A stretch of 62,962 nucleotides of DNA from an uncultured Planctomycetales bacterium (lineage in GTDB: Bacteria; Omnitrophota; Gorgyraeia; Zapsychrales; Aceulaceae), in assembly GCA_964648665.1 (NCBI GenBank), contig CAZYOA010000010.1, positions 1 through 62,962 of the forward strand, in the 5' to 3' direction. Of the stretch, positions 6,001-44,062 are shown one piece after another. Position 1 is the first letter of the stretch, and every line of letters starts with the position of its first letter. The notes beneath the pieces were generated by a model, which was not told the DNA's origin, made no database searches, and saw only the letters and a list, made by a program, of their open reading frames with translations. The translations under genes and the position numbers were made by a program.

Positions 6001-6050
6001 AGTCGAAAGTGCGAAAGGCGAGGACGATGCTGAACTTCAAGGCCTAAAAA
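2..6050 (+). other. N-terminal coiled-coil region of the giant protein (~2,000 aa)
   Basis: E/K/Q/L/A-rich sequence, almost no Pro, continuous heptad-like pattern. It ends at SSAVARSASSS and is followed by a hydrophobic helix (LWAIGLGVAGGIGVIGVIVFGWFLI, ~6150-6230). Confidence 0.85.
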
Positions 6051-9000
6051 AAATCTCTTCTGCGGTTGCTCGATCTGCAAGCTCAAGTGTTGTTTTAAGC
6101 CAGCTTGGGTCGGAATTCTCTGCAATATTGTGTCTCAATGTTTTTTCTTCGTCTCTTTGGGCAATAGGCCTAGGGGTTGCTGGAGGTATTGGCGTCATCG
6201 GTGTCATTGTTTTTGGGTGGTTTTTGATAAAGCGTCATATGGTGTTGCATCTAAATGTTCCATCTTCTTCTCCAGAGGTTGAGAATTATTTGTTGAAAGA
6301 ATTTGATGAGCTGGATAAATCATTATTAAGTAAAAGAAAAAGATTTTCTTATTTTCTAAACAAAAGACTGCTCGTGTCCATTATTCGTGCTTATAGCAAA
6401 AGAATAAGAAATGATTTCTCAGAGGATCAAGGTGATCTGGAAGAACGTTTTATTTCTAAGGATGATGAAATAAGTCCTCTTATTAATCGAATAGCTGAGG
6501 TATTGGGTGTTCAAAAGATTAAAGAGGAAGACATGAAGTTGTTCGAAAAATTCACTAAAAAACCAGAAATAAATCTTAATACTCTTCTAAAACCACTAGA
6601 TTGTCATACGGTGTCAATGCTTGGACGATTTGACTTAGCACTTTTAAGAGCGATTAATTTTGATTCTTCTGAAAATCGCTCAGAGGCTTTAATACAGTTT
6701 AGAAAGAATCAACGTTTAAGCATACGGCAAGCGGCTCAAAGATCTGTTATTTCAAAGAAGGAATACGAAGAGATAGAACGTTCAGGAGTTATTTCATCTA
6801 AGAAAGGAAAAGAGGTTTCAGGCGATGAACAGGTGGCAGAAGAATTATTCTTTGAGCCGGAACCGAAAAAAGTTTCAGAGGGTCAAGGTCAGCTTATTAG
6901 CTATTTGACTTTAAGCATAGCTAAAGCTGAAAAAGGAGTTACCAACGCTTTTAGAAGAAAGATTGCAGAGTGCATCGAGGCGTTAACTTCTTTTGCTAAA
7001 AAGAATAATTTGATTATTAATTTTGATATTAATAAAACTTTGAAAACGATTCTTCCGATTGCTGTTCATCAGGTAGCAAAGCGGATTTCTCCTAATCCAG
7101 AAAAAACTTTAAAGGTTGTTCTTAATCATTTGCCTGAAAATGGTGCTATTGCTTTTGAAGTGGATGGGCCTTATTTGACATCGACGGGATGTGTTATTTT
7201 TCAGCTCAAGGAAGCAAGAAGTCGCACTAAAAAAGATAAGTTAATGAGGTTAAGGGCAGCGGCACGGAATGAAATCGATCAGCGAGAGGAATATTTAAAA
7301 CTTGAGGTTCTTCTTGGTCTTTTCCCTGAGGCTAATCTTGCTGTTTTGAAAGCGGTATTGAATGAAATCGATCAGAGAGAGGAATCTCTAAAGGCTGATG
7401 TTCTTCTTGGTCTTTTCCCTGAGGCTGATCTTGCTGTTTTGAAAACGGCATTAACGAAAATTAAAAAGATTAAACAGAGAGCGAATGGCCAGAAAAGTGG
7501 AGTTGTTCATCGCAATGAAGTTGTGGTGGCTGACGTTTCTCATTTGACAGAAGCACAAGCGCAGAAGCTATATAAATTAATTGAAGATTTAAGGAATCGA
7601 AAGGGTTTTAGTTTCGCTTTCGAAGGTTCTTTTACGGTTGCATTTCAGAGCAACATTTTGGAAGTGGCAATTCTTAGAGATAAGAAATGGCAACAGATAG
7701 AAAGATACGAGTTTAAAAGTTCATCAGCGATTGTCTCGCCGGTTGCACCTGCTTCGAGTGCTCCTGTTTCCATGCCAATTCAACATAATTCCTTTGTTAT
7801 GCCGACTGTACCGCTTGCATCACCTTTGATATCTAGCGCGATATTCTTGCTTAGTCAGAATGGATCAGGTCATCAAGCAGGTAAAGCAAGAGGTGAGTCA
7901 TCAGGTCTTGGTATTCTTTCTGATTTATCTTTTATGGCTTGGATTTCTAAGAAGCAAAGCGCTCCAAATGTTTCTTCTTCATATATATTGACTTCACAGT
8001 CGCTATCAAGAAAATCAACTTCCTTAGACGGAACGATTTCGATAGCGACTTTTTTATTTAAATATCTTGCCGGTTTTCGCTCACTCTTTCTACCGTGGCT
8101 GGGAGAAGATTTCGATGCCGGCATTTCTTTATCAGTGGCGAGTTCAATACTTAATCTTTCTACAAGAGCTTCATCTGTAGCGGTTCTTCTAAGTATTGAG
8201 ATTTTGTCATACGGGAGCAAGAAGCTTACTTATTTTTCTCATTCCAACATACCGTTTCCTAGCGAACTAGCGAGAGGGGAAGTATATTTTATTCCTGAAG
8301 CTGAGGTTTTCTTGGCGAGCAAGATAGTTTGTAATTCAAAGATGACTCGTCATCATGGCCCTTTTCTTTTTGTGCACGGAAAAGGAAAATTTGGTCAGCT
8401 TTGCCTGGAAGGAACGGATGTTCCAGTTTCCGAATATCTATTTCTTCTTCAGAGGGAATTTCAGGTAAGCCAGATAGTCGTTCTTTGCTGTAACGAGGGA
8501 AATAATAATATAGATGTTCCTGAGGGGATGACAATTATATATCCTACGAGCGATGTTAGCGACTTAAGCAGGGCTCTTGATATGGATTCTTTGACAGGTA
8601 CTAATGATTTAGAAATGTTTTTTCAGGCGCATTTTTCTGAAATGTCTACGAGTGAGTTTCAAGGAATTCAGAATTTTTATCAAGCAGATTCATGGATATC
8701 AAAATCTGGTTCAAGTTCTTTAAGAAAGACTTTAGCGGCCTCTTTCTCACCTATCAATACTTTTGATCGCAACAAAAGATCTTTTTCAAATCACGCGATA
8801 AATCGAAGAAAATTTATTAAGATGAGTGCTGGTGGTGCAGGAGCACTTGGTTTCTTCGCAGCGTTTGGATTTATTCCTAAAGAAGGTAAAGCGCAAGCCG
8901 AGGTTGCTGATGGCGCAACAACTTTAAACAAATTACGAGAATGGAAAATCCTTTTTGTTACGGGTGACAAAGATGATTTTGGTGAAGCTAACAGTTTATT

Positions 9001-12000
9001 TGTTATGAGCGCAGATGGTTCAGATAAGAAAATTCTGCTAGAAGGCGATGATGTTTGGGTTGATTCAGCATCTTGGTCTCCTGATGGGCAGATGATTGCA
9101 TGCATCAATGGTGGAGATTTGATTATTTTTAATCGAGATGGAAACGTTTTGATTGAATCTGTTAAAGAATATGAACATCAGCAGTTATTTATAGAAAGTT
9201 TTTCTTGGAATCCTGACGGCAAATCGATATTTTATGCACAAGATGGCGTTGGAATCTTTGAGTTTACGATTGAAATAAGCAAAACGATTCAAGTCTTAAG
9301 GACAAGTAGGCAGGCTGTTGATCATTACCCTATTTTATCTTCTGATGGAATGGATTTAGTTTTTATTCATAATGAATTTGCTACAAATTTTTATATTAAT
9401 TGTATTAGGCCATATGGTTCTTATGAGAGCTTAAATGAAGATGAATATATGGAAAATCATTTTAATAAAAAAAATCAGAACCATTTTATAAATGAAAATA
9501 TAGATGTTCTGTTTCGGGGGAAGTCTTGGGGCTGGAATGTCGATCATTTTATTCAATGGGTTCCAAATAGCGATAAGATTATTTTTTCTGACAGAGGGGG
9601 AATTCAGAAAGTTTATGCTCTTGATTCTTGGACAAAAGAGTCGGAAGAGATTTTTAGTTCAGAGTCAATGCGCTATATGCGGCTTTCGCCTAACGGGAAG
9701 ACCTTGGCTTATATTGAAGATGCCCCGAAAGAAATTGTTGTTTGGGCTATCGAGGTTAATGGGAAAAATAAGCGCAAGATGAGTGCGTTTCCAACTAACG
9801 AATGGCTAAGCGGAATGAAAGTATTAAGCTGGTCTCCTGATAGCGAGTATCTCGGTGTCGCGGTAAACACAAATACATATATTTTAAATAAAGATGGTGA
9901 AATTGTTCATCTGATTAATCATAAAGTTGATTCTATAAAACATCTAGATTGGTCACCGAAGAAATCGTCTTCATCGCTTTTTCTTGCAATTCTAGATTTC
10001 GGAAATTCTTCTCAAGCTGATATCTTTGGTTATTCTATTATTGCTCTTCTTGTTGCTTGGGGTGTTTTTTATATTTACCCAATGCTTTTTGGATCGTCAA
10101 TTAATTATCAAGATCTTGATTGGAATGATTTTTCTATTAAAAAGAAGAAAAAGGGCATTAAAGCGTTTGAGAGATTTATTAAGAATGTTCAAGATCCAAA
10201 TAGTTCTGAAACTTTTGTTCTTGCTCGAGATGTTGAAACCGCTATGGAATGCATTAATAGTCGAGTTGGGCTTATCGATCAATATGGTATAAATTTTGCA
10301 GCTTTATATAAAGAGTTGCTTGAAGAGTTTAACGGCAGACAAAATTTTTATGAGTTTGAAGTTTTAGCATTCGCGAAAGAGCTTTTAGAAAGAAAAGAAA
10401 AAGAACTTATTTCCGAAAAGCTTAAAGTTAAAACGAACAAAAGATCTTCTTCGAATCTTTCTGTAAAATTCAATTACACAAAAAGTGAAGAGCTTTCTTC
10501 CCCAGCAGTATCTGCTTCAAAGGCTTCGTCTGCGGCTAAGCAAAATAAAAATAAGAACACTTTTCTCTATCATTGCTTTTTTGACATTTTAGGTATGCCA
10601 AGGTATTTCCCTGAGAATCAGGAGCCACATAATATTATAGATTATATGAATTATACCGTTCAGGCCTTGTGTACGACGAAGAAGTTTAAGGATAACGTTA
10701 CTAAAATTCTTGATTTATTAAAGAAAGCTTCAGGAGAATCATTGGATTATCTTGAAACTGTGGCCAAGGATATTTATGCACCTTTAGCTAATCGTGTTGG
10801 TTTTTTAGAAATCGCTGGAGAGCTTGTAGATGCTGTTTTTAAAGCTCGTTTTCCAGAGCAATGGGCGACGGCTGAAAATGAGATTCTTCGGGCTTTAGGA
10901 GGGATGACACGCGGCCAAGCAAATCGTTATCTTTTAGGAGTTAGCGCAAAAATTAAATCTAAGCTAGAGGACACAGGTATTGAAGTTGAAGCAATTTATT
11001 TGAGAGTTAAGGGGGCGAGTGCTGCTTTTGAAAAAGTCAAAAACAAGAGGGGCGACAAGACTTCGTATGCAAAGATTGGAACATTGCAAGATTTGCTTGG
11101 CCTTCATATTGTTTTAAAAAATAATGATGATTATTGGAAAGCTGTTGGGCTTTTAGCAGGCTGGGACAGTATTTTTGCCTCATATCAAGATCTAGGAGGA
11201 GAGCTAGATGAGGAACAAACGGAACAAAAAAGTCGTTTTAAAAAGGATAAATATGATGCACAACATTTTGGCATTAATATTCCTGTGCCTTCAAAGGTTA
11301 ACGGTGAGACAGCGTTTGTCATGATGGAGATAAAACTTTTTGATCCTGATAAATATATGTATTTTCGATACAGCCAAGAAGTTGCTTCGTGGATTTATGA
11401 GTTAAAAAGACGCTATCCGAATCAAGAATTTTCCTTAGGTGGATTAACCACCATGTCAAGTGATCCAGAGACAACCTTTGAGGATCTTTATTCTTATCTT
11501 CAGAATTGGACTTATTTCTTCTTTGTTCAGGACAATGATTTTGACGAGTGCTGCACTCTAAAACCTGTAGGACTTAAAGCAGGCGTTATTATGGCGGATG
11601 TTTTGAGTTTACCTGGAGTCGATAAGTTCTTGGCTCGTACGCAGACTAACGCTAAATTGCTGGAAGGGATGAACAGCCGTGATCATGCATTGGTTTATGG
11701 CTTTAGCTTTGGAACAACGAGTCAAAGAAAGAAGGAGCCAGCAGTCAAGAGATCTGGTAAGACTGTCATCGAAAAACTTAAGGAGGGTGATTTTATTCTG
11801 GTTGATTCAACAAAAAGGGCAAAGCTTACTGTTCAAGAAAAAGAGAAAATAATGAGCGAAGCAGGACGGTTGATGACTCTTCTGAGGCTTCAGCTTAAGC
11901 CTGGAGATTTTTATAATATGTCCTTGGAGGATGAAAACGCGAGAAAGATATCGTCCCGTGGCACAAAAAAGTTAATCTTGGCAGACTCGACCGGAGGAGT

Positions 12001-15000
12001 ACGAAGATTTTTGGAGAAAAATGAAATTGCGCGAGGTATAGATTTTGAAAACGCGCTCCATATGTGCGCTGTTCTTGGTCTCTGTGAAGTTTCTATAACG
12101 GCTGAAGTTGCTGAGCAGGCGATTGATGGAAAGTCATGGCTTACTTATCGGGTTGTGACTATTAAGGTAAAAAAGGGTGGACAACGAGCTAAGAAGACTT
12201 TTGTGGAGTTGACGCTAAGCCTTGATTATGAGCGTCCTGAACTAATGAAAGATATTGTTAAAGCTATTGCTCGAGTTGGAGCCCAGATTTTCAACAGTCA
12301 ATATTTTGAAAAAAAGGCTAAGCTGACGATATCAATTTTTGAAGGAAATATTCTAAAATTAAAAGATCTTTTAGGCGAAATTAAAGCGCTGGATAAAGAA
12401 CCTAAGAAGAAGGACGAGAATTTTGTCACAAAAGCAATACACGTTTTTGCAGATCTTGGTAAAGGCCGCAAGAGTTTTGAGCTTACGCTTATTAGTATTT
12501 TGTCAGTATTTGAAGATTTAAATATTCGTCTTGATAAAAATATGAATACATGGCAACCGAGTGAACGTTTTAATGGGCCGGATAAGGAATCTGTTTGCTA
12601 CTCTTTTCAAGTTGGAATACCGGATGCTTTAGATGAGAAAAAGTTGATGGAAGAACTTTATCAAGCAACAAATGGTGGAAGCATCGCAATTCAGGTTTCT
12701 TCATCAATTCTTGCTCTTTTCTCAGCCGATAATCTTATGACCGATGAAACGCTTGCTCAGATAGTTTTAGGGATTATTGTTGTAGCATGGATTGCTAAGT
12801 GGCTTTTTCCGTTTCTTTATTACCCCTTAAGACGCGCGATGATATTTATTCCTAAGAGTAATACTTGGAGAAATTTAACTATAAAACAACGAATAAGAGG
12901 GATGAAAGATTTTATAAGATTTTTTGAACATGAAAGAACAGTATTAATTTCTAGGAATATGACTGGTAAGAAGATGGCAAAGATTCTTAACAAGCAAATA
13001 CATTTCTCTGAAAAAGGATACAAGAGAGGTTTTGCAGCTCTCTACGGTATTTTTCTAGAGAGACTTATTCCATCAGAGGGAAGTTTTAGTGCGGAGAGCA
13101 TGCCCAAGATAATAATAGAAATTATTACGGAAAATAGAAGCTTGTTAAAAGGATCGACAAAGATTTCTTTTGCATTTGCTGTTCTTAGTGGAAGCAAGAG
13201 CGAGACAATAATTAAGCCTTGGAGGGAATCTGAAAAGATTATTAAAGGTGTTCCTGCAGGATTGAGAATAAACCAAGCAAAAGCATTATCTCAAATTTCA
13301 AATCGAAGTTCTTCAAAGCTTGTTGCACATCGCGTTGAAACAATGGCTGAGGCACGCAAAGCTTTAGAGCTTGGCATGAAGGCTGTTGAAATTGATATTC
13401 AGCTTACTAGAGATGGATATTTGATTAGCTTGTGGGGAAATGTAGGGCAAGAGCGTTCAGAACTTGTTTATAATTTAGATCTTCAAAGTATTCGAGAGAT
13501 TTCAAATAAAGAAGTTTTAATTGTTAGCGAGCTTCTTGACTTGATAAAAGATAAAAATGTTGATCTTTTTGTTCATCTTCAAGATTGGGCGAAAAATATT
13601 GAAGGTTATACGGAAGCTTATCTTGAAGCGATTGCAAATTTGATTAATAAGATTGAAATTAAGGGAAGAATTTTTGTTTTAAGTTTTAATAAGGATACTT
13701 TTTTGTTAAAAAGCATCGCCTCTAGAGTTTTGCCTGGAAAAATTATTGATTGCAAAACTCATAGTAAAGCTAATGTTATTGAGGCTTTTGTGGATCTTGT
13801 TAAGTATCGAGATGCACTTATTTTTATTTATCCTGAATTCTTAAGTGAAGAATTTATTAAGAAAATGCATAAAAATAGATTGCTAGTAGCTACAAAATTA
13901 GAGGGTTTAGAGAAGAGCTTAATTCCAAGTGTTGATTTTATTTTTGTTGATGATTATCAAGGGTCAATTAAGAGGGGATCTTCAAACCTTATTAGAACTG
14001 CTAAAAATGCGAATCAGTTTCTTTTGGCGTGTGCCTTAAAGGTTAACATTCCTTGGACGTTTTTGTTTAATAATAACGAGCACGCCAAAGATATTGTGAT
14101 TGAAATTGTTAAGCGCTTTGTTGCTGAAGCATGTGACAAGAAACAAGAAAATCTTCAATTTGAAGATTATATTGCAATGGGTGATAAGCATTTTAGAGAA
14201 ACTCGTGAGTGGCTTAATAGTAAGGCTTTATCTGGATTGCTTGATTTTTATAACCGCCAAGAAAAAAGAGATGGAAAACAGATAACTATTTTTATGTTTG
14301 AACAGCTTGGTTTGATTGAGAAAACAAAAAGCGCACGAGAGATCGTTCATCTTTCCGAATTAACGGATCTTTTGAAGAAGAATATTTATAAAATTACGCC
14401 TTGGAAAATTCTCGTTCAGAAGAATTTAAATGGTAAGAAAATTATTTTAGAAATCTTAATGGAAATGGTTCGCCAAGATGCTAGAGATGTTCGAGGAGAT
14501 ATTCGAAATCTTGATGAGAGAAATTTTCGTAAAAAGAGAATTTTCTTAAATGGTGAAGCCGTAAACGGACTTTATCAGTATTATGCTGTGTATTATTTTA
14601 AGAAAGATGATCGTGATGGAAAAAGAGTTATTGATTGCATCTTAGAAGATGTGGCTTTTTTGCAAAGGCAATATTCTTTTAAGACGGTGCCGAGACTTTC
14701 TAGTTTGACAGCGATGATCATTCAGTCAAAAATTCCACAGATTGAATGGAAACAGTTAATTGAGGAAAATCCAGACGGACCAAGCATTGTCGTTGAAATT
14801 GTTGATGCAATACCTGGCGTTACGGTTAATCGTGCAACAGGCGAAGTCGCTGGTCTCTCCAAAAAGATTGTTTATGAGCAAGCTGTTCCTGCCTTAGGGG
14901 GACAAAATATTTTTGGACTGTATCAACATTTTTCATATCAAGGCGTTACAGGACGAAACAACCTTCTTAAAGCTATTCGTGATTTTGTTAAAAAAGAAAT

Positions 15001-18000
15001 ATTGCAACAAAATAAAGCAAAGAAAGCTTCTTCGAATCTTTCTAAAAAAGAAAAAGCAAATATTTGCAAAACACTTAATAAAATATCTGAGATTACAGAA
15101 GTAAATTTGCAGGAAAATATTAATAGTGTTAAATTTCACGATATTTTAAATAATGCTAGAAAAGCTAGTGAGATTGCGAGGGCTAATAAAGTAGTAGAAG
15201 CTTTGTCGATTTTGATGCGCATTGCCAAATACAGCGTATTAGATCGATTTGGATATTTATTTCTTCGGCCTCATTATGTTGATGCTATTTTTCAGATAGA
15301 TAATTCTTCTAAGAAATCAGAGGAATTTTTTGCAGGCCTCCTTATTCTAGATACTGGTAAGAAAAATTTTGATGATTATGTGAAGTGCCAGGCAGCAAGA
15401 TGTTTGTTAAGTATGGAAGTTCTTGAGTATTTGCCTGAAACGCTAAAAGCTTTAATGATAAATTCATCTGTTCAAAACAGCTGGGTGTCTGGTGCTTGTG
15501 GCGATGCTTTACAAAGATTTTCTGTTAAGAATAGGAATGTTAGAATTTCTTCAAATATTCTTTTTATTTCTTCTAAAAAGAAAGCGCTTTCTTCTTCACC
15601 GTTGTTGTTTTTTCCAGGTGTTCCTCTTGAAAGAATTATTCCTTGGATTTCTTCGGAATATTGGATTTCATTATTTTCTGCTTTTGATGGATGGATTGCG
15701 GTAGCAATATTTTTAGGACTTGTTATATCGCTGAGAGTTATTCATAGAAGACAGGGTGATAGATTTGTAAAGCGGCTTAGGATGCAGCTATTGGATAATA
15801 ATACACGTAGAGCAGAGCGCCTTATTGATAATTTTAGAAATATATTTATTCGAAAATCAATGCTTAAGCCGTTAGCCGAGGTTTATCTTGATGAAAGAAT
15901 CGACCATGAAGTAAACAAAGTTGTTGTGAAGAAGATTATTTTGCTTCTAGAGCGCATAAGGCAACGAAGGGTTTTTAAGATTTGGGTCAAGAGTATTTTG
16001 ACAAGCTTGATGTTGGACGAACACATTACGCCTCAGTCTCAATCTGAGTATTTCTTTAAGTATGATGGATTCACTGAAAGTGTTAAAGGCTATATTATTC
16101 CTCATATAAAAAGTATTTTAAATTATAAAAATAGAAATGAACAAGTGCGGATACTTTCAGCTGAAGGGGTATCTATTTTTAATGATGGATCTAAGTTTCT
16201 TGATGCCATTCAAGCGGCAACGTTCTGTCTTGAAGCAGGCATTCGTCCAGAAGAAATTAAAATTGTTGTTGTCGCAAGAAATCCAATTTCTTTGTGGCAA
16301 GGGTCTAGAGGTTATTTCTCTTTAAATTGGTTTTCTGATAATGAGTGTAGCCTTACAGGAGACAATAAGAATTTTATTCATAAATATTTTTATGTTACAG
16401 ATAAAGGGAGCTTGAAAGTAAAAGATTTTGTTTTAGATATGATTGAAGTGCAGTGTTCTTCATTGAAAGATTTTAGAGTTCGCAAGAGTCTGGATCGATT
16501 TGATATTATTATGGGATTTCTTTATGAGTACAAAGAAGAGTTGCGACAGGAGAAGGGTGATAAAAGCGATCTTCTTACAACAAATATTATTGCGGCTAAT
16601 CATTATCATAATTTGAATTCAGCAGGACTTCTTGCGGTGACTACAGAAAAGTGGATTAGAAATATTTTTACTTATAATCAAATTGTAGGTGGACCTGGCT
16701 TGCCGCAAGTTTCCATTGTGACAACAAGGTATAAAAATCTTAAGTTGAGGGGAAAAGTATCAATTTATAAAAAGAGTATAGATAGGATAACTGTTGACGT
16801 TGTAGATGGACAGTTTTATGCGCTGGCTAGCTGTATTACAAAGACTGGTTTTCAAAAGAATTCTGGTCAGGAAGAGAAGATTTTGAGGCGAGCATATAAG
16901 CTTGCGAAGAAAATTCATGCAAAGCAAAAGCGATCAAACGGAGAGCCGTATATCATTCATCCTTTTTCTGTATTTTGGTCATTGTTCGAAGATTTCAAGA
17001 TTTCGGGACACTTTTGTATTCCTGAATTGTCTTCATCGGGGTATAGCGCAGAGATTATTATTGCTGTGTTAGCGCTGCTGCATGATGTTTTAGAAGATTA
17101 TAAAAAAGATGTCAGAAGCTTAACATTAATTAAAAAAAGACAAGAAGCTGTTAATCTTGTGAGCGCGTATTTGTTGGAATTTGTAGAAGATAAGCGTGTT
17201 GTTGATTTCATCATGAAAGGATTAGATTTCTTATCAAAAAGAATTTGTGAAAAGGGAGTTGTTCAATCTGAAGAAGATGAAGTCGATTATGAAAATAGGC
17301 TTGTTAAGGCTCCAGACTCTGTAAAAATTGTTAAGATTGTTGATCGATTAGCTAATGTGAAAACTCCACGATACAAACGTACTATAAAAGGAATTTTAAA
17401 GTATCGAGAAGAGGCAAAAAATCTTGTTAAGAGATTTAACTCTCCTGCTTTAGCTCAATTTGCAAATATATTCTTTGAAGAAGTTGTGCATCTTGATTCG
17501 CCAGAGATCCGCAAGAATTCGTTTCCCTCTAGAGCTAAAAAACCAAAATTCAAGAATAAGAATTTTTCTAAATTTTCTATGCAGAGAATTGTTCAGAATT
17601 TTTTCTATATTTTTGCAAGCCACCAATTAAGCCAAAGAGAAATAATACCTTTAGAAGAGAATGTATTTCCTGGAGATGGTAGAAAGAATGAAGAGTGGGA
17701 TATTCAGGACACTCACCGGATTCGAAGAGTGCTTGCGATCGCAGTCGTTAAGTGTGTTAATTGGCTTCTATTTTTTAATGATATTTATAAAGGACGAAAA
17801 ATAACTCGATTATTTTCTATTCTTTCTTTTCTTGCGGGAATTCTTTTTTCTATTAGCTTGTTTCTTATGGAAAAAGATTTCTCAATTCAAGAAGAGAATG
17901 ATTTAAGTTATGATTATCGTGTTCGAGGACCGACACAAGATCTTAAAGATCCTGCTTTAACCCTTCCGCCGTTTTCAAAAACACATGCCTCTTCCAGTGT

Positions 18001-30000: not shown

Positions 30001-33000
30001 GAAAAATATCATTAATAAAGATATACAGGAAAATACTTTTGGTGTTATTGCAGGGTTTAAAAATGCGAAGAATCAGTTTGTAGCTTTAATGTATTATCAC
30101 AAAAAAACATATTCTTTCTTAGACGAAAAGTTTTATGTAGGCTCTCCGGAATGTGTACCTAAAGAAATATTTAATATTGTTTTTGCTGAAACTTTAAAAT
30201 CATTTGATCGGTCAAAAGAATTTATTGAATTATTAATTCAAGAAGCTATAAATCTTAGCCTGCAAGACATATCTTTAGATTTAAAGTTTCAAGGTGCTAT
30301 AACTTTTGATTATGTAACTTGTGGGACAGAAGCAATCTCTGAAAAAAGTATGAAAGAGTTTTTAAAAGGTTTAGGATTTCAAGCAGTATTGCTGGAGAGA
30401 CCTGTAGGGCTTTTTGAAACAGCAAAAAGTGAAGCTGGTTTTATGTTTTTGGCTAAAGACGCAAATGAGTCTCAAAATCAGAATAAAGATCTTAGTCAGC
30501 GTAAGAGCAGCTTATCATTACAGCTAAAGAAAGTAGCTTCTTCTAGCCTTGATCGACTTATTGTAAAACTCAAAGTTATAAATGAAAAAGAATTTTCAAG
30601 ACGACCAGAAATTATTAGCCATCATGGACTTCCTCATTCTTTAGCTGTTTGGAATGCGTGTAAAGCAGTTGCCGGTGAATTTGGTGCAGATCTTGAGGTT
30701 TTAGCTGTCGGAGCATTCTTACACGATATTGGCATTGCTTATACCGATGACATGCGTCATGGTCGTGTAAGTGTTAGAAGGGCAAGGCCTCTCTTAGAAA
30801 GCATCGGATTCGTACGAGAAAAAATTGATCTAGCTATAAGAATTATTGATGAACATGATGATTATAAGGTCTATAGAGAAAGTATAGAAAGCCAGATTCT
30901 TTTTTATGCAGACACAAGGGCTGCTTTTGGGGCTCGAGGAGCGCAAAGATATATCGACATTTATAAGGAGCGGGGTATTCAAGAATCAGACATTCCAAGT
31001 CTTGCTTTAAAAAACATGAAGAAAAGATATGATTTGGTTCTAAATTTGGATTTTAAAGCAAAGCTCAAAGTTCCTTATAGTCGCGGTCAGAAGTTTTTGC
31101 AAGACATCGTCGATGGTAACCATAGATCTAAAGTTTCTAAACTTAAGACGCCAAGATTTTATATCTTGGATCATGCTTTTTGGATTTCACCGTATCTTTT
31201 GAAGCAAACACAAAGGCGCCACCGAGGTAAGAATGAAAGATATGAAGTTACGCTAATTGATCAAACGTCTGGTCTTTGGATTAAGTTTCTTTATAAAAAG
31301 AGTGAAAATTGTTTTGTTATTAAAATTCCTGAATTTTGTTGGCATAAAAAAGTTTTTCCACTTTTGCTAGAAAGAATTTACCTTAAAGATATTTTTAAGA
31401 AAAGCGTAAAACTTTTAAATTACAGAATTGTATTTCAGTTTGTATTGCGCATGATGATAGCTCGACATCCTTTTGTTTCGGTCGACAAGGCTGTTTTTGA
31501 AGAAGTTGAAGCTTTTGGTCAAAGAAAAGAGATAAATAAAACGCTCACACAGAAGTATGTTGATTTTGTAGGATTTCATATGATTGGTATTTTAGAGGGA
31601 ATTCAGGGTCATGTTAATCGTTATCGAGATAGCGACAAACAAACTGCGTTATTTTTTATTCTTTCAGATAAAAATGATTCTTCTATTTTTATCGTTGTCT
31701 GTCGTATTGGAGAAAAGATTTATATTCTCAATTCTGATATTTCTTTTGATGAGCTTTTTCCTAAAAAGAACGGCAAGCTTTTAACTAAGCGCATTGATCT
31801 TAAGCAGAACAAAAGCTTTGCTAAATTTTTATCGAAGATGAACGTTAGGTATAGAGAAGGAAAAGAACGTAAATTTAAAGAAAATGAAAAAGTTCTCTTT
31901 TATTTTAATAAAACAGCGGTCAAGGCAAGAGCGAATCAGCCTGTGGACGCGGTTAAGATAAAAGATCCATTAATTAAAAAAGGTATTTTGGGTGGTCAGG
32001 TTGATATCTTAAGCAGAAAGAACGGAGAGCTTTTGTGTCGAGTTATCCACGTCTTAGAAGATAAAGAACAAGGTGTTATTTTTACGATTGAAGGTCTTGA
32101 GCTTGAAAATGGCCAACTTCTTCGTGTTGCTGTGCAAAGTACAGTTATTCATCTTAATCGAGTTTTTACGCTTTTTAATCTTATCCGAAATGTCTTAAAG
32201 CCTTCTGCGCAAAAACAATTGGATGTTTTATCTGAAACGTTTTCTTTTGCATGTATTGCAAAATCAAATTACCAAGTTCCTTATCAAATAGATTCTGAAT
32301 TAGGACAAATTACATTCTTAAAGACGACTGGTGAATCAAAAAAGAAAAATTCATCTAATATTATTCTGCTGGATTTATCAATAAATAAAAAGATTCGTAA
32401 GAGTTCTTCAAATATTGACTTAGGAAAAGACTCTGGGAAAGAAGCTGGATCTCTGTGGCAGCAATTTAGGTTGGCTGATCATATTATTGAGAGTGAATCG
32501 AAAGAGCTTAGATGGCTTAAGAAATCATATAAGATGATTAATTATATTCGAAGAATGTTAGCAAAGATTGCTTTGAATCAAGAGAATGTAGCTCTTCGAG
32601 AAGATGAAATTGATCAGATTAGAGATGTTTTAAAGTCCTTAATTGATGAGGGAGAACAAGAAGCTGGCATGAAGCGTCCCATCAAAAAGGTGAAGATACA
32701 AATTAAAGAACGATTAGAGTTTGCTTTGGAATATGTCGAAACGCAAAAGTCGGCAGCTTTTGCAATTTTTTTAAGTGATACCTTAAGGCTCATGGTTCAA
32801 AGAGGAAAAGCAATTAGAAATATTATAAATTCTATATATAATTGTCAAATTTTAGGCTTAGAGAAGGAGTCTAGTTCTAAAAGCTTTGAATTCTTAAGAT
32901 ACATAATTAATATCGAGCAAGAAATTAACGTTGGTGGACTTAATGCTGCTTATAAATTAATTCAGAAGCTTAAAAACGCAGAACATTTAAGCTGTTGTTT

Positions 33001-36000
33001 TGATAATCCTGATTTTCGGCGTGCTCGACAATCATTAAGCTTTGCAGGCTGGCTGATAAGAACCAAGGGTGACTTAGACATTGCTAAAAGACAAATACAA
33101 TCTATCAAGTTTGCAACCTCTAGATCTCAGTATTTAAACTCATTTATGCATATATTTCGAAAGAGTTATATTTTAGATAAACTTGATGGTGAAGGGTTTC
33201 CAAAAAAGAGAATTTTTAATTTTGCTTATAAAAAGTTTATGTTGGAAAATAAAATGTCGTTAACGTGTGTACAGGCGAACATGTTACATGTTCTTTTTTA
33301 CTCTTGCGTGTTTATTCCTTTTAAGATTGATTCACTGAAGAAAAAAGGAAAACGAATTAAAAATCCTTTATTTTCAGCTTTTTTATCTTTCATGGAAATC
33401 CAACAGCTTGCTTCTTTTAATTATCTTCGTAAGGACACAAGAAAGAAAATTCCCGCAACTTCAGCATGGATAGATCAATTTATAAAAATGGGCAAAGAAA
33501 ATTTTTATTGTTTATCTCAAAGAGAACGAATGAATATTATTGATGCTTTAGTTGAAGATTATGCGTTAACAAAAGAAGACCGTTCTCATATTGTTTTTTC
33601 ATCAATCTCAAAAGAAAGACATGAAAAATATTTATTTGATAAAGCTTTTCAAGTTGTTAAATCAATTGAAAGCTTGTGTCAGGAAAATAAATTTGATTGG
33701 TTTGATGAAAGAATCAAAGAAAAAATAGAAAACTTGATTTTCGAAATTCGTCAGAATCTAGAAATTGAGAGAGGTATTGTTTCTGAAAAGATTATTGAGA
33801 TTTTGCAGATGGTTATTCTAGAGTCATTTATCCCTGAGTACGACACAAATATTTTAAAGATTCTTTATGAACTTGTTTTGTACCAAGACATGTATCTAGG
33901 GCCAGAGTGGAGCAACTATATTGTGTCGTTGTTAAGCCGACAACAGGAATTCTCACCTGATTATGAAGATGTTGTAAGAATGGCTATGGTTGTTTCAACG
34001 CAAAATCTTAAAAGAAAACCAGATAATAAAAGAAATAAAAAAAGTAGTTCACAAATTTCATCTTTAACGTCGGTAAAGCTCCTTGGTTTTACATTTAAAA
34101 TAGATGATAAGAGCGCGGCATGCGAAGGAACTCAAGGAATTAAGCTTATTGCTGAATGGAATGATGAAAAAAAAGCTGGCATATCGGATATTTATATTTA
34201 TAGTCAATTTTATAAAAATGGAGGCCGGTCTTTAAGAGGTGTTTATATTGATTCTCAGTTTCAGGGTCTTGGTTTTGTTTATCCTGTTTTATCGATGTTT
34301 TTTAGTATATTTAAAGATGTTCGATCAACACATCCTCTGTTGGTTTTTCCGGGATTTCTAACTCTTTTAAGAAATGAATACGGATTTTCTCCTGAAAGAA
34401 ATGAGGAGCAAAATGCTGTTTTTAGCCGAAGTTTAGATGAAGGAAAGCATTTAATTTTCTTTTTTGATCAAGATGTCGAGATGCTTTTTACTGATCGAGG
34501 AGCTCAAGTTTTACATAAATATCGAATAGTTAGGAATGTTAATCAGGTTAGAAATCCAATTCCATTGTTTTTAGGAAATCCACTTGTTGTAAAAAAGGAA
34601 CAAAAGTTTCAAGATTCTATTTCGCGATATCCATTCGAAATGGTTTCAGGAAAACCAGAAGATCTAGCATTTGGTGTTTCGAAAAGTTCTTCATTGATAA
34701 AATATGATTTTCTTACGCGTCTTAAGCAGTTTGATGGCATGGTGATTGAAATCAACGATTATTATGGGGCGCCAAATATACAAAAACAAGCCATGCTTTT
34801 AAGAAGAGCTGTTCAGGTTCAAAGGCTTCGGCGCACTTGTAAGCAAGAATCCTTTTTTGTAAATAAAGATGACTGCTTTAATGATACTTTGATAAAACCT
34901 GGCGATCGCATTCAATGGCTTTTGTTTGGTGGCCTTTTGCGGGCTTGCCTTGTGGATATGTTAAAAAAGATTCTCAAGCATGAGAAAGCTTTAACAAGCG
35001 AAGCGAACTTAGTTTTTGCGTTACCGCTTTTTGCTATTAATACGCGTTATCGATTCTACAGGGCAAATGATATAGGTGAATTTCGAGACTATCCGCATCC
35101 TCAAAAAATTCCGCAACTTCTTGCCGAGCATTCCACGCGAGGAGAATTGACAACAGGAAAAGAAGACGATGTGCTGTATGGCAAAGATTATTTCACGTTA
35201 GATTATCCTAAACAATATACAGCTGTGATTCGTAATAATGGTCAAATTTTGCGTGTGATTCCCGCTCAAGGTAAATTAACTTTTACCTTGGATTTTTTTA
35301 CATCGTTTGAATCTATGGAAGAACATGCTTTTCAGGCACTTGCTTCATCTGCGATGATTTTGTCTTTCGGTTTGAGAAGCCCTATGGGAAAGTTACTGCT
35401 TGTTTCTTCATCGGCAAAGAGAGTGAGCTCGTTTTGTCTTGAAGGTGGGCAGGGGTCTTCAACTATTCAGGTTGCGTCTTCAGGCCAAAGTTCCTATCCT
35501 GCTAGGTCTAGTGTAGAAATTATGAAACCGCAAGTTTCTTTAGCGGACATTAGAGCTTCCTCAACGGTTGGTAATCAATTAAATTTTAGAACTTCTGAAG
35601 GGGTATTGTTATCCGAAGAGCCTCGAAAGCTTCCAAGCCATATTCGCCAAAGCGTGCTACCAAAAGGTAAAACGATTGTTGTCATGGGGAAAAATGTTGA
35701 GCGCGACGCGGGGCAGACAATTGAAATGTTAATGAAGCACAACACTGTCATTTTGATACTAGCTGACAAATCTATCGAAACGGAGAAGGCGCTCATTGAA
35801 GCAAACCCAGATATTATTATTGCCCCAGATAGAGACAGCGTGTCTGAAGCGCTTATTCAGGAGTATTGCAACAAGCAAAAAAGAGAAGTCAATGTTCTTT
35901 ATTATTGGAATCTGGCAGCCATGTTGCAAGGAAACCACATAGATGTTTCTCAAAAACCAAACTTAAGTGTGGCCGGTGAGCATATTCGCCTTGTAGTAGA

Positions 36001-39000
36001 ATCGATACAGGCTCATGGTACACAAGTTCCTCGTAAGGATTTTCTTTATAGGACAGCTTATGACCGAGGCGTTGAATATATATCCAAAGCCTCAGCCATG
36101 ATCGCAGAGCTTTTAGGGCTTAATTTTACGTCTGGAAAACACGCAAATAATTTTGTTGTAACTAAAATAACAAAGAGAGGCAAGCTTCTCGCGCCGGATT
36201 CATTCAAGAGATATCAAATTGTTTTTAACGGAGAAAAAGAAAAAGACGGGTTTGAAATTATTGATATGTATACAGGGCAGCCAGTCTTATTTATTTCTCC
36301 CCATCCAGATGACCCTGAAATCTCTGCAGGATTCTTGCTCATTTTTCTTCTAATTCAGGGTGCTTCGATTCACAATATTATTTATTCATCTGGAAAGAAT
36401 GGTGTTGTTGATGATGATCCTCTGCTAAAAGAGCTTCGCGAGAAGTTTAGTTTTGAGCCGGAAATGGCCAAGGCTATAATAAGAACGTTTGAGGCTGGGC
36501 AATCAGCTATGTTTTTACGTTCGGCTTTATTGGCTTTGGGAAAACTTAAAGGTGACATTGAGGTCTTGAGCTTAACGGCAGATCAGATATTTTCTAATGG
36601 CAAAGAAAAAGATACTCGTCTTTATAAAAGGTTTTCGGCAGTCTTACAGAATCATCTTAGGTTTAGAGCAAGCTCGAAAGAAGGAATCAACAAGCCAGAT
36701 CTACCATTTGTTGTTGCGCTTACTCATCCGGTTGACAGGCATCCAACGCATATTGATGCCTACAAGAGGAGCATTAAGGTTCTTCATCAGTTAGCCGTAA
36801 AGTATAATATTGAAATTCAGATTATCTATTATATGCCGCCATGGCAAGGGGATTATGACACGTATTTTCAATCTTCATCTAAACAAAAAATAGAGGACGT
36901 TGCTCGTTTAAGCAAAGAGGATCAGATTACAGCATTGATGTCTCAGGGAATGGCTTATTTTACTGCAGAACTCACTATGAAGGCGTTTGGAGCTAAGGTT
37001 CCTTTCCTTAAGGATATGGGCGGAGAACGTGTTGAGCGGTTTAGAAGAGGTGTGGTTAGAGCGTCTTCCTCAGCAATCGATTGTAAGTTTTTAATACATT
37101 TTTCCAAGGTCAGAAAGTCGCTTTCAATTTATTCTTGGGAAGGCGGCTCTTTGGAGCAAAAAGAAAGAATTGAACGCTTGCTTTCTGGTTTAAGCCAAGT
37201 TATTCCTAAAAAACATTGTGAGTATTTAAAATATATCCACCTACGCTCTGGTTTTGTTTGGAATAAATTTACGGGTCTCTTTACTCGAGCGGGGGGAGGT
37301 ATGGTGCGTGATAAGCATGGGATTATTTTTTATAATATAGATTTGCTTTCAGATTATGAGCTAAAAGAAAAAATATTCCACGAGATTGGTCATTTGGTTC
37401 AGCGTCATCTAGATAAAAAGACGAGAAGAAGTTGGCCAGTTAGTATGATTACTCACCTTGACGTCTATGCTCCCAGGGCCCTTGTTACATCTCTCATAGC
37501 TTTATTAATAATGGTTAACATGTTCGGCATGCACGTTTCTTATCATGTTCCAATTGCCCTGTTTATTTTCTATTATTATTATTGGTTTTTTGCGCGTCGA
37601 ACCATGCGGAAAATCTTATCATTACAAGGAAGTTATGTTTCCGATTACGCCACTCATAATTGTAGCGAAGATTTTGCAGAAAGTTACAGGTATTATTTTC
37701 TTTATCGCAATGAATTTTTCAGTAAGGCTAAAAAGAATGACATATTGAATGTTAAATTCAAGATACTGCAAGAAGAAGAGGAAAATGCCATTTCCTCGCC
37801 GGTAGTTTCTTTGGGAACAACAATAGCTATTGTTGGCCTTGGTAGATGGGGTCAAATTTTGGTAAAAGTGTTAGATGATTTTCTAGAATATAATATTATT
37901 GGAATTGCTCGCAGTAATTATGAAGAGCTAAAGAAAAGAGGGCCTCTTGGTGTAAATGTCAAAATACTTAGTCATAAAGATTATCAAGTGCAAGTATTAA
38001 ATAATCCTGATATAAAAATAGTCGTTATTGCTACTCAGCCTTCCAGTCATTATCAATTAACCAAAGATGCTCTTTTAGCAGGGAAGAATGTTCTTGTTGA
38101 AAAACCATTTGTACAGAGCTTGGAAGAAGCGCAAGAGTTAATAGGGCTTGCCAATAGGAATAATCAAGTTTTGGCTGTTGGGTATGAGCTTATGCATGAT
38201 TATTATATTAATTTGCTCAAAGATATTATAGAAAACAAAGCTATTGGGCGTGTTATCGGAGCCGAGATTAATATTATGAATTTGTCTTTAGAAGAAAAAT
38301 TGAACATAAGCGTTAATGTTGTAGAAGAATTGGGTGTGCATGCTTTTAGCATTGTTCAAGTTCTTTTTGGGGTGAGAGAAACGACGGAACTTTGTGCTCT
38401 TGTAAAAGAAAATAAAGCTCAGGTTGGATTTATTCATGATGGCATAAAGGTAATGATAAATGTTTCAACAGAAGCTCAATATAAAAAAAGAACAATTATT
38501 GTCAAGGGAGACAACGGGACAATTGAATTAGATTATGCTATTGGCAGTTTTATAGCGAAAGATAATTATGGAAATATGATTAGTAAAGATGATCTAGGGC
38601 TTTCAGAGCAGTTGTTGGCTAAAAAAAGAAATTCACCTTCAACGTTGGAGGCCGAATTTAAATTGGTTTTAAAAGCAATCGAGACAGGTAGTGAACTTAT
38701 TAATAGTGCTGAGAATGTTTTGTGGATAACAGCTCTAACTAGCCAGATTAATCATCTTGTCTTGGCAGAGAATGGAGTGTTGCCTGCAAGTTTTTATGAT
38801 ATAGATATTAGCAAGAATATGCCTCAAGGGAAAGCAGAGGCTTTTATTAGAGGAGAATATACAGAGTATCCATTTAAGGTTGAATTTTATGTTGGAACAC
38901 ATTGCCCCGGAAATTGTATATTTTGCCCAAGAAATGTTGATGGGGAGATGTGTAATTATGATACGGAGGCAGAAGCTGGCTTGGTTAAGCTTTCACCCGA

Positions 39001-42000
39001 ACAATACACTAGATTGGTTTATGATTGTGCTGACAACGGAACAAAAGAAATTGAAATAACCGGAGGGCTCGAGCCGCTTACTGATGTTTCTGCTGTGATT
39101 GCAATAATTAAGGCTGCAATAAAAAAAGATTTAATAGTTTATATTTATACTTCAGGAATTCCAAGGCAATTTCAGGTAGGTATGCCTTGGTTACTTAAGA
39201 CAAGTAAGGTGAGGATAAGCTTGCATGCTGCAACGTCAGGGACATATCATAAGGTTGTTCGGCCGAGCACTAAGGAGGAACAATCTAAGAGAATATTTCT
39301 TTCGGTTTTAGAAAATCTGCGTTTACTCGTTGAAAAAAGAAATAGTGATCCAATATCCAAGACTTGCCTGGGGATTAATATTGTTTTAACTGAGTTTAAT
39401 TATCATGAAATTGTTTTGATAGCTGATTTGGCTTATGATTTGGGATTAGATTTCTTGGATATTCGTTTAGATTTTCAAGATAGTGAATATTTTACACAAG
39501 AGCAAGAAGCAGAGCTTGTAGGTCTTATGGGAAAGCTTCGTAGAAATACGAGTGAAAAGAAATATGGAGATTTAAGGATCAGTTTTCCTGTTTGCTTTCT
39601 TCCTTTTGATGGTTATTTTATCAAATGGCAAGATTATCCAGAAGACGTAGATACATATTCTGAGTTTGGAACATACCCCTTTGAAATTATAATTGATCCT
39701 TTTGGAGGTGTATTTTTTACTTCTACATCTGCAATGCCAGGTAATCGTCATCTTGACATTCTTGAAAACAAAGAATTAGGTGTCGTAACAGGTAATGCTG
39801 ATGAAGAAATTAAGATGATATTAAAAAAAAATATAGAAAAAAGAAGAAAATTTAAATTTACTGCAAAAGAATTGAATGTTTTTACTAGAAAAATGTTGCT
39901 TGATTTAAAAGCGATAGAAAAATCAACAGGTAGCAGTGTTTTGATTGCTCAAGAAGTTCTTAATAATTTTTTTAATAGAGGAATCGTTTTGGAAATAGTC
40001 GATTATGAGCATAGTGCGAATGCTCCGCCGCAAGGCGTTATCTCCTCGCCTGTGAAATTTATACTTGTTGCAAAGCTGGATTCTTATTGTTTTGACTATG
40101 ATTTTGAAGATACAATGTATGTCTTAGAAGCTCTTCCATCAGATAAAAATTTGAAGAGTTTTCTTGATAATCAAGACATGGAATTTGCCTTTGTGATGAT
40201 GATCACAAATCAAGGTCCAAAGTTGTTTATGATTAAGGGGCGAACAAGTAGGCAGGCTGTGCATATTCAAAAATTAATTAGGAGCGTGTTGAGTAGTTAT
40301 AAAGGAAAGATATTATTTGCATTACATAATCATCCTATTGGTGCAGGTTACTTTCCGAGTAGAGGTGATTTTATGGGAATGATTGTGGAGTATGATGATC
40401 TAGTTGAATTGGTTGAGAAATTTTACCTGTACAGTCCTTTTCATAGAGCGTACATAGAATATAGCAATAAGAAAGAAGTAGAAGATGAAGTTCTTCGATT
40501 TAAAGTAGAGTTTTCAGATGGGAATTCTGATGAGTTTCATTTTGAAGAAACTTATAGCTATTTCTTTAATTATCCTTTTGATCCAAGAAAGGAGATTAAG
40601 CTAGATAATTCCGCTGTTAACGAGGAGTATATTAGGTTTGTTGAGAAATTAGAAGAAAGACGAGTAATGTTTTTAGGATGGGTATTAGATGGGGCAAAAA
40701 AAATAATCATAGAATCGTGTATTGGAAATGTGGCTATTTGGCATAAAGATCTTAACCTTCTTAATGATTTCGCGCTCAATGTCAATAATGATTCAAGATC
40801 ATATTTGCGAAAAGTAAGCTTGGTGATTGATAGATTTGATTTAAGTTTTTTAACTTATTTTTCGAATAAATCTTTTCTTTCGTCGGTAAAGAAGACAAAT
40901 CTGTTTTGTTTTCGAGGCGGACAAGAGCCTCCAACTGTCCAGGCTGTGTCTTCAAGTATTGCTTTAACTTATATGATAGGCTCTGGCTGCTTGACGTTTG
41001 CGGCAGAGTTTTTAGGAAATTATTTTGCTACTAAGAAATTTGATCTTAAGCATGCTTTGCCATTTTTTGTTTTTGGCGCGTTGGCAGGATATGAGTTTAT
41101 TTCATTAACGGATTTTGTTTATGTTCAGATACCTTTGCTTAGCTTTGGAGTGAATGATATTTTTAGGGCTGTATCGCTTATGGTGATAGGAGGATTCATT
41201 GGAGTTCAGTATTTATTATTTAATCATTTATTGCACAAGATCTTTCTTAGAGACAAAGACCTGACCGACGAGGCAGAGCTTGATTTTAATCTTAAGAATC
41301 AAATGAGAAAGATCGTTAAAGTGTCCCCTGTTTTAGGTCTCATCATTTTCTTAAAATATTTTCTTATTCAGCGTTTTTTGCCAGAATTGTTACAGCCAGC
41401 TGTGCTTATGTTTTGGGGCTCTTTAACGCTTGTTGTAGCTAGTTGGGCTGCTAACTCTGAGAAAGTCGTAGTTTACAAGGAGTTGCTAGATAAGGTTAAG
41501 GGGCGGATAGGAATGAGTTCTAAAAAGCATAATTTAAAAAAGTCTTCTAGCTCGCTCCTGGTTTCGAGCAATATGCGAAATCCTTCATCTAGTCTTCGTC
41601 GTCATCGGATGGTTTGGTTAATAAGGTCTATTTCTGATCACCTTCCAGAAGTATTTCAGAAAATTGAGAATAAATTTAATGAAAATTCTGATTATGTGAA
41701 TATTTTAAAAAGTCTTAATGATCTTCGAGATATTAGAATTTCTGTTATTCACACGCATATTCATATGGACACACATAGATTTGATCGGCTTTGGGATAAA
41801 ATGATTGATGTTGTTTTAGAATCCATTGATGAAGTAAGAAGTCTTTATGTTGAGGCGGAAACACTTTTTATCGATGAAAGCGACTCTGTTGATAAGAATT
41901 TCAAGGGGGAAGATTGGAGTGATATTGTATGGGTTTTGTATTCGATGAGCATTAACGAAAAGAAAAAGCTAGAACGTTTTCTTGTTTTGTTTCCCGCAGC

Positions 42001-44062: not shown

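Follow-up and report, generated by a model that had tools for sequence, protein, structure and literature searches.

A short seam peptide, uniform within a protein and different between proteins, joins the modules of a giant Omnitrophota protein

According to recent reports, the giant genes of Omnitrophota can be as long as 147,000 codons. The multi-enzyme giant proteins of this phylum, like the one described here, are encoded on the chromosome, exceed 10,000 amino acids (aa), combine many unrelated enzyme domains with hydrophobic anchor segments, and are suspected of being cleaved. The main study of these genes also suspected cleavage and stated that the points of cleavage are not known (West-Roberts et al. 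2023, bioRxiv 10.1101/2023.11.21.568195). Motifs at junctions, linkers or cleavage sites are mentioned neither in the text of that study, nor in that of Nielsen & Lui 2026 (bioRxiv 10.64898/2026.06.07.730766), nor elsewhere in the literature that we searched. We analyzed a giant gene in a 62,962-nucleotide (nt) segment of a bacterial chromosome with a guanine plus cytosine (GC) content of ~35% (contig CAZYOA010000010.1 of assembly GCA_964648665.1; the whole segment is called the window). Its open reading frame (ORF) occupies 242..44062 on the forward (+) strand, on which all features of the giant protein given below also lie, and encodes 14,606 aa, counted from the first start codon after the upstream stop. 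The protein has more than 10,000 aa in one ORF and contains many distinct enzyme families, none of which dominates, and it adds a member to the multi-enzyme class already known among Omnitrophota giant proteins. What is new is a short motif at the seams between its modules, with protein-specific equivalents in other giant proteins, and this seam code appears to be undescribed.

In the giant protein, complete proteins of ordinary size follow one another in a single chain, with a short seam peptide at the joins. The consensus of this peptide is [basic/A/V]-S-S-S-x-[L/I/V], and ASS and SSP occur as variants; together with these variants, 35 runs of at least three serines (Ser) fall into ~42 junction clusters, and the modules between the clusters have a median length of 242 aa (interquartile range 156-478). 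Within one protein the seam word stays the same, from protein to protein it changes, and selection acts on it at the amino acid level. We put the probability at roughly 45% that a polyprotein is recognised or cleaved at these seams.

An earlier note on this DNA had claimed roughly 40 copies of a Ser-Ser-Ser motif that nearly spares the N-terminal coiled coil, and our counts agree on both points. There are 40 overlapping SSS copies, the quoted examples all lie within ~10 nt of where they had been placed, and the first 1,940 aa contain a single SSS. Composition predicts 6.5 copies (2000 global shuffles; standard deviation 2.7, maximum 18), and shuffling inside 30-aa blocks yields 12.1 (1000 shuffles, maximum 27), so that a locally Ser-rich composition was judged insufficient as a cause. 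Among the tripeptides of the protein, SSS is over-represented most strongly (z=13), ASS comes second (21 vs 5.1 expected), and outside the coiled coil SSS is the commonest tripeptide outright, with 37 copies vs 18 for the next. The longer pattern SSS.[LI] was observed 23 times vs 1.2 expected. Ordinary Omnitrophota ORFs lack such an excess, with 151 SSS vs 136 expected (ratio 1.1) in 1,006 ORFs from 80 other loci, and this comparison rejects a proteome-wide bias toward Ser runs. The remaining ORFs of the window have 4 copies vs 2.1 expected.

A Pfam scan of the giant protein in 15 overlapping pieces of 1,200 aa (E<0.01) identified GDPD, circularly permuted ATP-grasp, HD, PIG-L, GFO/IDH/MocA and radical SAM domains and a weak Peptidase_Mx match; the domain list of the earlier note was recovered in this way except for a JAB domain, which was not detected at this threshold. 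Further modules are RelA/SpoT-like, NagB-like and beta-propeller. We then carried out the comparison of motif positions with domain boundaries against chance that had been suggested, using 26 boundaries set independently of the motif (block ends, internal repeats and Pfam starts). Nine of the 26 are at most 5 aa away from a run of three or more Ser, an ASS or an SSP, where 1.3 would be expected (p=3e-6). Runs of three or more Ser by themselves account for six (0.86 expected, p=2e-4); of 95 control dipeptides with a similar abundance, none attained the count of the Ser runs, whether the tolerance was 5 or 10 aa. The motif lies within 10 aa of ~35-55% of the independent boundaries and within 30 aa of ~70% of them.

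The seams coincide with the ends of proteins that exist on their own. An exhaustive profile search with aa 11201-12400 yielded 71 homologues in three blocks (A, B and C), and homologue coverage is near zero at SSS 11482, across 11702-11775 and at SSS 12275. Free-standing proteins of 207-223 aa cover exactly the stretch from SSS 11482 to ASS 11702, which is module B (aa 11485-11701; 34694..35344), a complete protein of an uncharacterised family. Module C (aa 11776-12274; 35567..37063), which is NagB-like and contains the PIG-L deacetylase, corresponds to free-standing proteins of ~490-600 aa, and these end 5-15 residues past the conserved GG..AERFRR, where the giant protein has RASSS. The seam between blocks A and B is SSS aa 11482-11484 (34685..34693), in a valley of coverage. 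Between B and C lies a Ser-rich linker of ~75 aa (aa 11702-11775; 35345..35566) with ASS, SSS, ASS and ASS, for which no homologues were found, and SSS aa 12275-12277 (37064..37072) coincides exactly with the end of the free-standing homologues of module C. For aa 11260-12300, an AlphaFold model that drew on 27 homologues (mean predicted local distance difference test (pLDDT) score 71), has two confident domains, aa 11487-11701 and aa 11778-12277. In this model SSS 11482 is five residues ahead of the helix that opens the first domain, the low-confidence linker has ASS 11702 and ASS 11773 at its ends, and SSS 12275-12277 are the final three residues before confidence drops. Searching the PDB with the fold of the second domain returned only LmbE/PIG-L deacetylases. 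A model of aa 9300-10110 was poor (4-row alignment, pLDDT 50) and indicates no more than that SSS 9467 lies before the first helix of a helical module. The idea of a standardised junction is borne out in that the motif bounds modules that occur elsewhere as complete free-standing proteins.

The seams are also points of rearrangement. A 1,150-aa protein of Candidatus (Ca.) Aceula lacicola (P0002) shares only aa 9315-9469 with the giant protein (62% identity), and in both proteins this 150-aa module starts with [IL]SSP and ends with SSS/SSP. In the giant protein its start is SSP aa 9316-9318 (28187..28195; LSSP in P0002) and its end is SSS aa 9467-9469 (28640..28648), which is at the same time the start of a helical module shared with P0001, a partial Omnitrophota protein of 2,017 aa. 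P0001 shares two blocks with the giant protein, aa 6406-6871 (24% identity) and aa 9465-10072 (48% identity). The first block is followed by a double SSS in both proteins, namely SSS-KQKKT-SSS (aa 6876-6886; 20867..20899) in the giant protein and SSS-x10-SSS in P0001, with unrelated spacers. The second starts with G[LV]SSS and has an SSS after it in both; in the giant protein this is SSS aa 10100-10102 (30539..30547), between the end of the block at 10072 and an HD domain that starts near 10129. In Ca. A. meridiana, an ORF matches aa 11487-11704 at 40% identity and has SSSS on each side of this block, vs SSS and ASS in the giant protein. Across P0002, P0001 and this ORF, the modules stand in another order and beside other neighbours than in the giant protein. 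The two blocks shared with P0001 are spaced 2,600 aa apart in the giant protein vs 900 aa in P0001. From this difference in spacing we conclude that modules were rearranged at seam points, and the question whether homologues shuffle domains at the motif is thereby answered for the large homologous proteins, which rearrange modules at exactly these points.

How homologues were searched for affects the weight of the negative results. Word-indexed protein searches with aa 9607-14606 and with aa 11201-12400 gave no matches, and a search with aa 9301-10500 gave P0001 and P0002 only. The word-indexed search overlooked P0001 with the 5,000-aa query, despite an overlap of 48% identity, and all homologues that the exhaustive search of aa 11201-12400 found; its negatives on the giant protein therefore carry little weight. 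A metagenome scan with an alignment of the helical module gave no match, and one with an alignment of a GNAT-like module gave only two copies of the Ca. A. lacicola gene.

With P0001 and P0002 set aside, distant homologues of the giant protein have no excess of SSS (33 vs 27 expected), and several carry a different word (counts in brackets are observed vs expected). The word is RSELR, with about 24 copies, in the Omnitrophota protein P0046 (7,123 aa; L087:6028-27399; RSE 24 vs 3.2) and SEMR/SELR in P0040 (Omnitrophota; 2,914 aa; EMR 8 vs 0.3). It is ARLA(G) in P0056 (5,823 aa; L089:934-18405; ARLA 19 vs 0.5), and P0004 (3,084 aa) has the same word as AR[LM]A (RLA 10 vs 1.5). RTSP[MV] is used in P0057 (6,474 aa; L088:10001-29425; RTSP 15 vs 0.04) and SS(S)PV in P0078 (Omnitrophota; 2,487 aa; SSP 9 vs 0.4). 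These words occupy corresponding places. At the end of module C, RSELR of P0046 stands in the columns aligned with RASSS of the giant protein, and ARLAG of P0056 and ARMAE of P0004 follow ~10 and ~19 residues past this end. Before module B, SELR of P0040 is found at the place of SSS. An NDK domain of P0046 (2112-2255) has the RSELR word on either side, at 2108 and 2260, and the receiver domain of P0078 begins three residues past SSSPV. Tandem seams with short spacers are common. From these alignments we judge that SSS is one local version of a protein-specific junction motif in Omnitrophota-type giant proteins.

Several modules begin with what looks like a targeting signal. A twin-arginine translocation (Tat) signal peptide (aa 2853-2885; 8798..8896), with NRRKFIK and a Gly/Ala-rich hydrophobic region, starts 27 aa after SSS aa 2824-2826 (8711..8719), 2,850 residues into the ORF. 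It matches TIGR01409 (NCBIfam) with 18.9 bits (curated cut-off 16.7) and ends as ...NRRKFIKMSAGGAGALGFFAAFGFIPKEGKAQA followed by EV, with an AxA site (AQA/EV). A TolB/WD40-like beta-propeller follows and reaches SSSS aa 3242-3245 (9965..9976), which closes a 416-aa unit laid out like a normal Tat precursor. A crude hydropathy scan located the strongest hydrophobic helices at aa 1975, 3266, 4176 and 5151, each 4-32 aa after a seam. The first, aa 1975-1996, is flanked by three SSS (aa 1947, 1969 and 2008; 6080..6271) at the transition from the coiled coil to the modular part. The second begins ~21 aa downstream of SSSS 3242 and the third ~21 aa after SSS aa 4153-4155 (12698..12706), whose module is an internal repeat of the module after aa 3242. 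Helices and a Tat signal just after seams are at the positions expected for the N-terminal targeting signals of separate proteins.

Together, these features suggest a polyprotein. The seam would stand in place of a stop codon, an intergenic spacer and a start codon, and one dedicated factor would recognise every junction. The best candidate for this factor is an endopeptidase that would cut the polyprotein into its units, each of which would thereby gain its own N-terminus, including signal peptides and membrane anchors. Processing by an endopeptidase explains why the word is uniform within a protein and divergent between proteins, why tandem seams with short spacers occur, and why N-terminal targeting signals are preserved. 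The earlier suggestion of protease sites that release many mature proteins from one gene is strengthened by the different words at the same junction, by peptide-level selection and by the intact internal Tat signal, and it is weakened in that no cognate protease was found. A wider proposal is that Omnitrophota giant genes are bacterial polyproteins with a protein-specific seam word, which would be read by a co-evolving protease and release dozens of mature proteins, some with their own export signals, while units would be added by seam copying; we consider this tentative, with the odds against it.

A number of observations, set out here and in the next three paragraphs, weigh against recognition and cleavage at the seams. 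No peptidase domain is common to the motif-bearing proteins, and Pfam lists none in P0040, P0004, P0078, P0046 and P0001. The giant protein itself has only the sub-threshold Peptidase_Mx match at aa 12462-12527 (E=2e-4). A punctuation word was not found in the large homologues P0064 (Elusimicrobiota), P0048 and P0059. A chain that is not cut and spans the membrane several times could also accommodate the Tat signal, given one more weak hydrophobic segment (aa 2522). As for the S8 subtilase encoded nearby, which had been put forward as a possible processing enzyme, its signal-peptide-like N-terminus and its PKD and FG-GAP repeats make it look extracellular, and this role is unsupported. A U32 family gene is also among the neighbours.

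Further points against cleavage are junctions without a motif and motifs without a junction. Several independent boundaries, for example the radical SAM and ATP-grasp starts, have no motif within 30 aa, and at least two SSS are inside domains: aa 5597-5599 (17030..17038) lies within the SpoT-like HD domain, and aa 12211-12213 (36872..36880) in a surface loop within module C. The earlier statement that the motif marks almost every junction is thus right in that most copies sit at junctions and too broad in the rest. Ser is a common linker residue, and such motif-free junctions and internal copies would be expected if the seam were merely a preferred short flexible linker, or a helix or strand cap, of this lineage that no specific factor reads. 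The weak flanking context would also suit such a generic linker: 63% of sites have a hydrophobic residue at +2 (background 33%), and ~30% have a basic one at -1/-2 of the Ser runs (background 15%). However, this reading predicts neither a uniform word of 3-5 residues per protein that differs among proteins (SSS, RSELR, ARLAG and RTSPM) at or just past the same module end, nor a 6-fold excess that is missing from ordinary multidomain ORFs of the phylum, and we regard it as the least probable of the readings weighed here.

The C-termini of two proteins count against cleavage as well. P0002 (...NSSSAFC) and P0056 (...AARMAAQAV) end 3-4 residues after a seam motif, and a pure cut site does not require a terminal motif; it is as if the seam belonged to the C-terminal end of each unit, even with nothing after it. 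A terminal seam in both proteins would suit a tag better than a cut site, and a repeated docking or modification site on an uncut chain (O-glycosylation, Ser phosphorylation, or binding of a chaperone or scaffold) agrees with a short, exposed, peptide-level motif in low-confidence linker stretches and with the Ser in the SSS, SSPV, RTSPM and RSELR seams. The ARLAG and ARMAE seams, 10-19 residues beyond the same module end, contain neither Ser nor Thr, and the glycosylation sites proposed earlier cannot explain the Ser-free ARLAG seam. Moreover, an ordinary GT2, 18 kb off, is the only kinase or glycosyltransferase linked to the locus, and a docking or modification site gives no reason for intact internal precursor features such as a Tat signal with its AxA site. 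We consider this explanation quite unlikely.

The codons of the seams bear on whether the motif is kept as peptide or as DNA. The Ser codons of the window seams vary, RSELR in P0046 is encoded by freely varying synonymous codons, and orthologous seams swap the AGY and TCN families: the seam at aa 9467 is AGT TCA TCA in the window vs TCT TCT TCG in P0001, and that at aa 10100 is TCT TCT AGC vs TCT TCT TCA. From the variation of Ser codons and the codon-family switches at orthologous joins we conclude that the peptide is under selection. Alternatively, the seams could have been left by gene fusion, with units joined via copied short DNA (site-specific, by microhomology or templated), tolerated as a linker in a chain that stays uncut. 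This is unlikely in view of third codon positions that vary under unchanged amino acids, both in the window and in P0046, and of SSS kept in unalignable linkers beside blocks of 24-48% identity; a neutral scar would decay at non-synonymous sites too. No DNA conservation was found in the flanks of the window seams, TCTTCTTC is specific to neither frame nor strand in the window, and no conserved nucleotide core site is present at every window junction. Copied DNA is nonetheless favoured by several features, of which the codon bias, strongest in P0057, also counts against cleavage. By position, the codons in the window seams are biased to TCT (60%), TCT (49%) and TCA (43%), and AGC makes up 3/105 of them vs 17% of isolated Ser. 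The [IL]SSP[VL] subclass is TCN TCG CCK in three species (window 28187-28195, 37793-37801 and 40043-40051; L005 ORF 132-3584, aa 139 and 284; L090 P0001, aa 1362), although TCG is rare, with ~9% of the Ser codons of the window gene. The seams of P0046 keep the CGN and TCN families, tandem seams with short spacers are frequent, and in P0057 all of the 15 RTSP seams are CGC ACA TCR CCN, against the gene's own codon usage. Here CGCACATC occurs 14 times in a 38-kb locus, only in that gene, strand and frame, and a conserved nucleotide core is therefore present in this relative. A DNA-level cassette scar, one of the options in the earlier note, is unsupported as the sole explanation in the window, and the position-specific bias and the nearly invariant DNA form in P0057 speak for a part of it. 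The simplest reading is that seams were propagated by copying and then drifted under peptide selection; a dual RNA/protein constraint may also act on them.

Other explanations were tried and rejected. Internal translation starts at seams do not fit the many L/I codons after seams, which are no start codons, or the lack of a ribosome-binding-site-like sequence before them. Rare-codon pausing was rejected for the window, where seams use the commonest Ser codons. An alternative code or hidden stops were rejected as well: the frame is open for 43.8 kb at 35% GC, and TCA occurs 208 times in the ORF vs 29 times inside Ser runs.

The remaining features of the giant protein are as follows. The N-terminal coiled coil of ~1,940 aa (242..6061) has SMC/Rad50-like matches. 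SSS aa 4356-4358 (13307..13315) is at the extrapolated start of the GDPD domain, and SSP aa 12518-12520 (37793..37801) separates the weak Peptidase_Mx match from the first strand of the GFO/IDH/MocA Rossmann fold. The helical module that follows SSS 9467 (copy 1, aa 9470-9885; 28649..29896) is 30-37% identical to an internal repeat (copy 2, aa 13785-14187; 41594..42802), which is preceded by a seam of the form SSSS-x10-SSS (aa 13768-13784; 41543..41593). Modules A (~160 aa) and B (~215 aa), at 34100-35344 (aa ~11290-11701), come from families with free-standing members, and neither has a match in Pfam, NCBIfam or the PDB; an invariant Cys in the context WL.YGG....C belongs to B. Two RelA/SpoT-like pieces are 2,000 aa apart, a synthetase-like one (10766-11155; aa ~3509-3638) and an HD hydrolase N-terminal one (16892-17128; aa ~5551-5629). 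There is also a weak match to a VipD-like C-terminal domain at aa ~10748-10851. Outside the giant protein, the precomputed Pfam list of P0057 includes an Rce1-like (CPBP) intramembrane protease domain.

The giant gene is directly followed by a 574-aa ORF (44140-45864, +), which overlaps the start of a U32 gene by 4 nt and has no match in Pfam, NCBIfam or the PDB. ORFs of similar size (563 and 573 aa) adjoin U32 in both Aceula species. The S8 subtilase (1,718 aa; 47510..52666, +) has FG-GAP and PKD repeats. Also downstream of the giant gene are genes for a comM-like ATPase, a PAP2-like protein, an L,D-transpeptidase, accA, rlmN, the GT2 glycosyltransferase and two tRNAs, and a 164-aa ORF with a eukaryote-type STI1/HOP DP domain lies at 60994-61488 (-). 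The U32 gene is 80% identical to that of Ca. A. lacicola and 68% to that of Ca. A. meridiana, the best 80 related loci are nearly all from Omnitrophota, and the downstream gene order is kept in other species. By these comparisons, the giant protein is encoded on an Omnitrophota chromosome closest to Ca. Aceula. A location in a virus, prophage or conjugative element, as for a viral or mobile-element polyprotein or polyvalent protein, is at odds with the housekeeping neighbours and the kept synteny. The same giant gene is present in three public assemblies (L001-L003), which are uninformative on conservation because they are identical over the last 2,733 aa; gene callers give it 14,788 aa in L001 and 14,799 aa in L002, vs 14,606 here.

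Seams that can be read from the sequence provide concrete candidate cut sites in giant proteins and allow these proteins to be divided into units before their structures are predicted and their parts annotated. By covarying between lineages, the seam type offers a route to the enzyme that would read the seam. If cleavage is confirmed, a free-living or episymbiotic bacterium would use polyprotein expression to an extent so far known only from viruses; otherwise, the seams remain a record of the stitching of whole genes into giant ORFs.

Among known systems, the polyproteins of viruses, such as the substrates of picornavirus 3C and of the nidovirus main protease, likewise hold complete functional proteins in one ORF, separated by a short motif that is constant throughout a polyprotein and varies by lineage. 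The giant ORF differs from them in lying on a cellular chromosome with housekeeping genes and tRNAs and in being about five times the size of the largest viral polyproteins, and its cleavage is putative. MARTX toxins are single bacterial polypeptides with several unrelated enzymatic cargo domains that are cut by an internal cysteine protease domain at inter-domain Leu sites. The modules of the giant protein are mostly metabolic-type enzymes and its motif is different; the Pfam scan revealed neither RTX repeats nor Peptidase_C80. Polyproteins of the gingipain/HagA type and of the nematode or neuropeptide type also have repeated short processing sites and spacer peptides between tandem sites. 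Gingipain/HagA-type and neuropeptide-type precursors consist of related or repeated units and are processed by a known protease at Arg/Lys, whereas the units of the giant protein are unrelated complete proteins. Finally, megasynthases and fusions that are not cleaved, such as polyketide synthases and non-ribosomal peptide synthetases (PKS/NRPS), AROM and CAD, likewise place many enzymes on one chain with short inter-domain linkers. To our knowledge, the linkers of PKS/NRPS, AROM and CAD are not one uniform word per protein. Unlike the enzymes of such megasynthases, the units of the giant protein do not make up a single recognisable pathway, and among them is an exported precursor that carries a signal peptide of its own.

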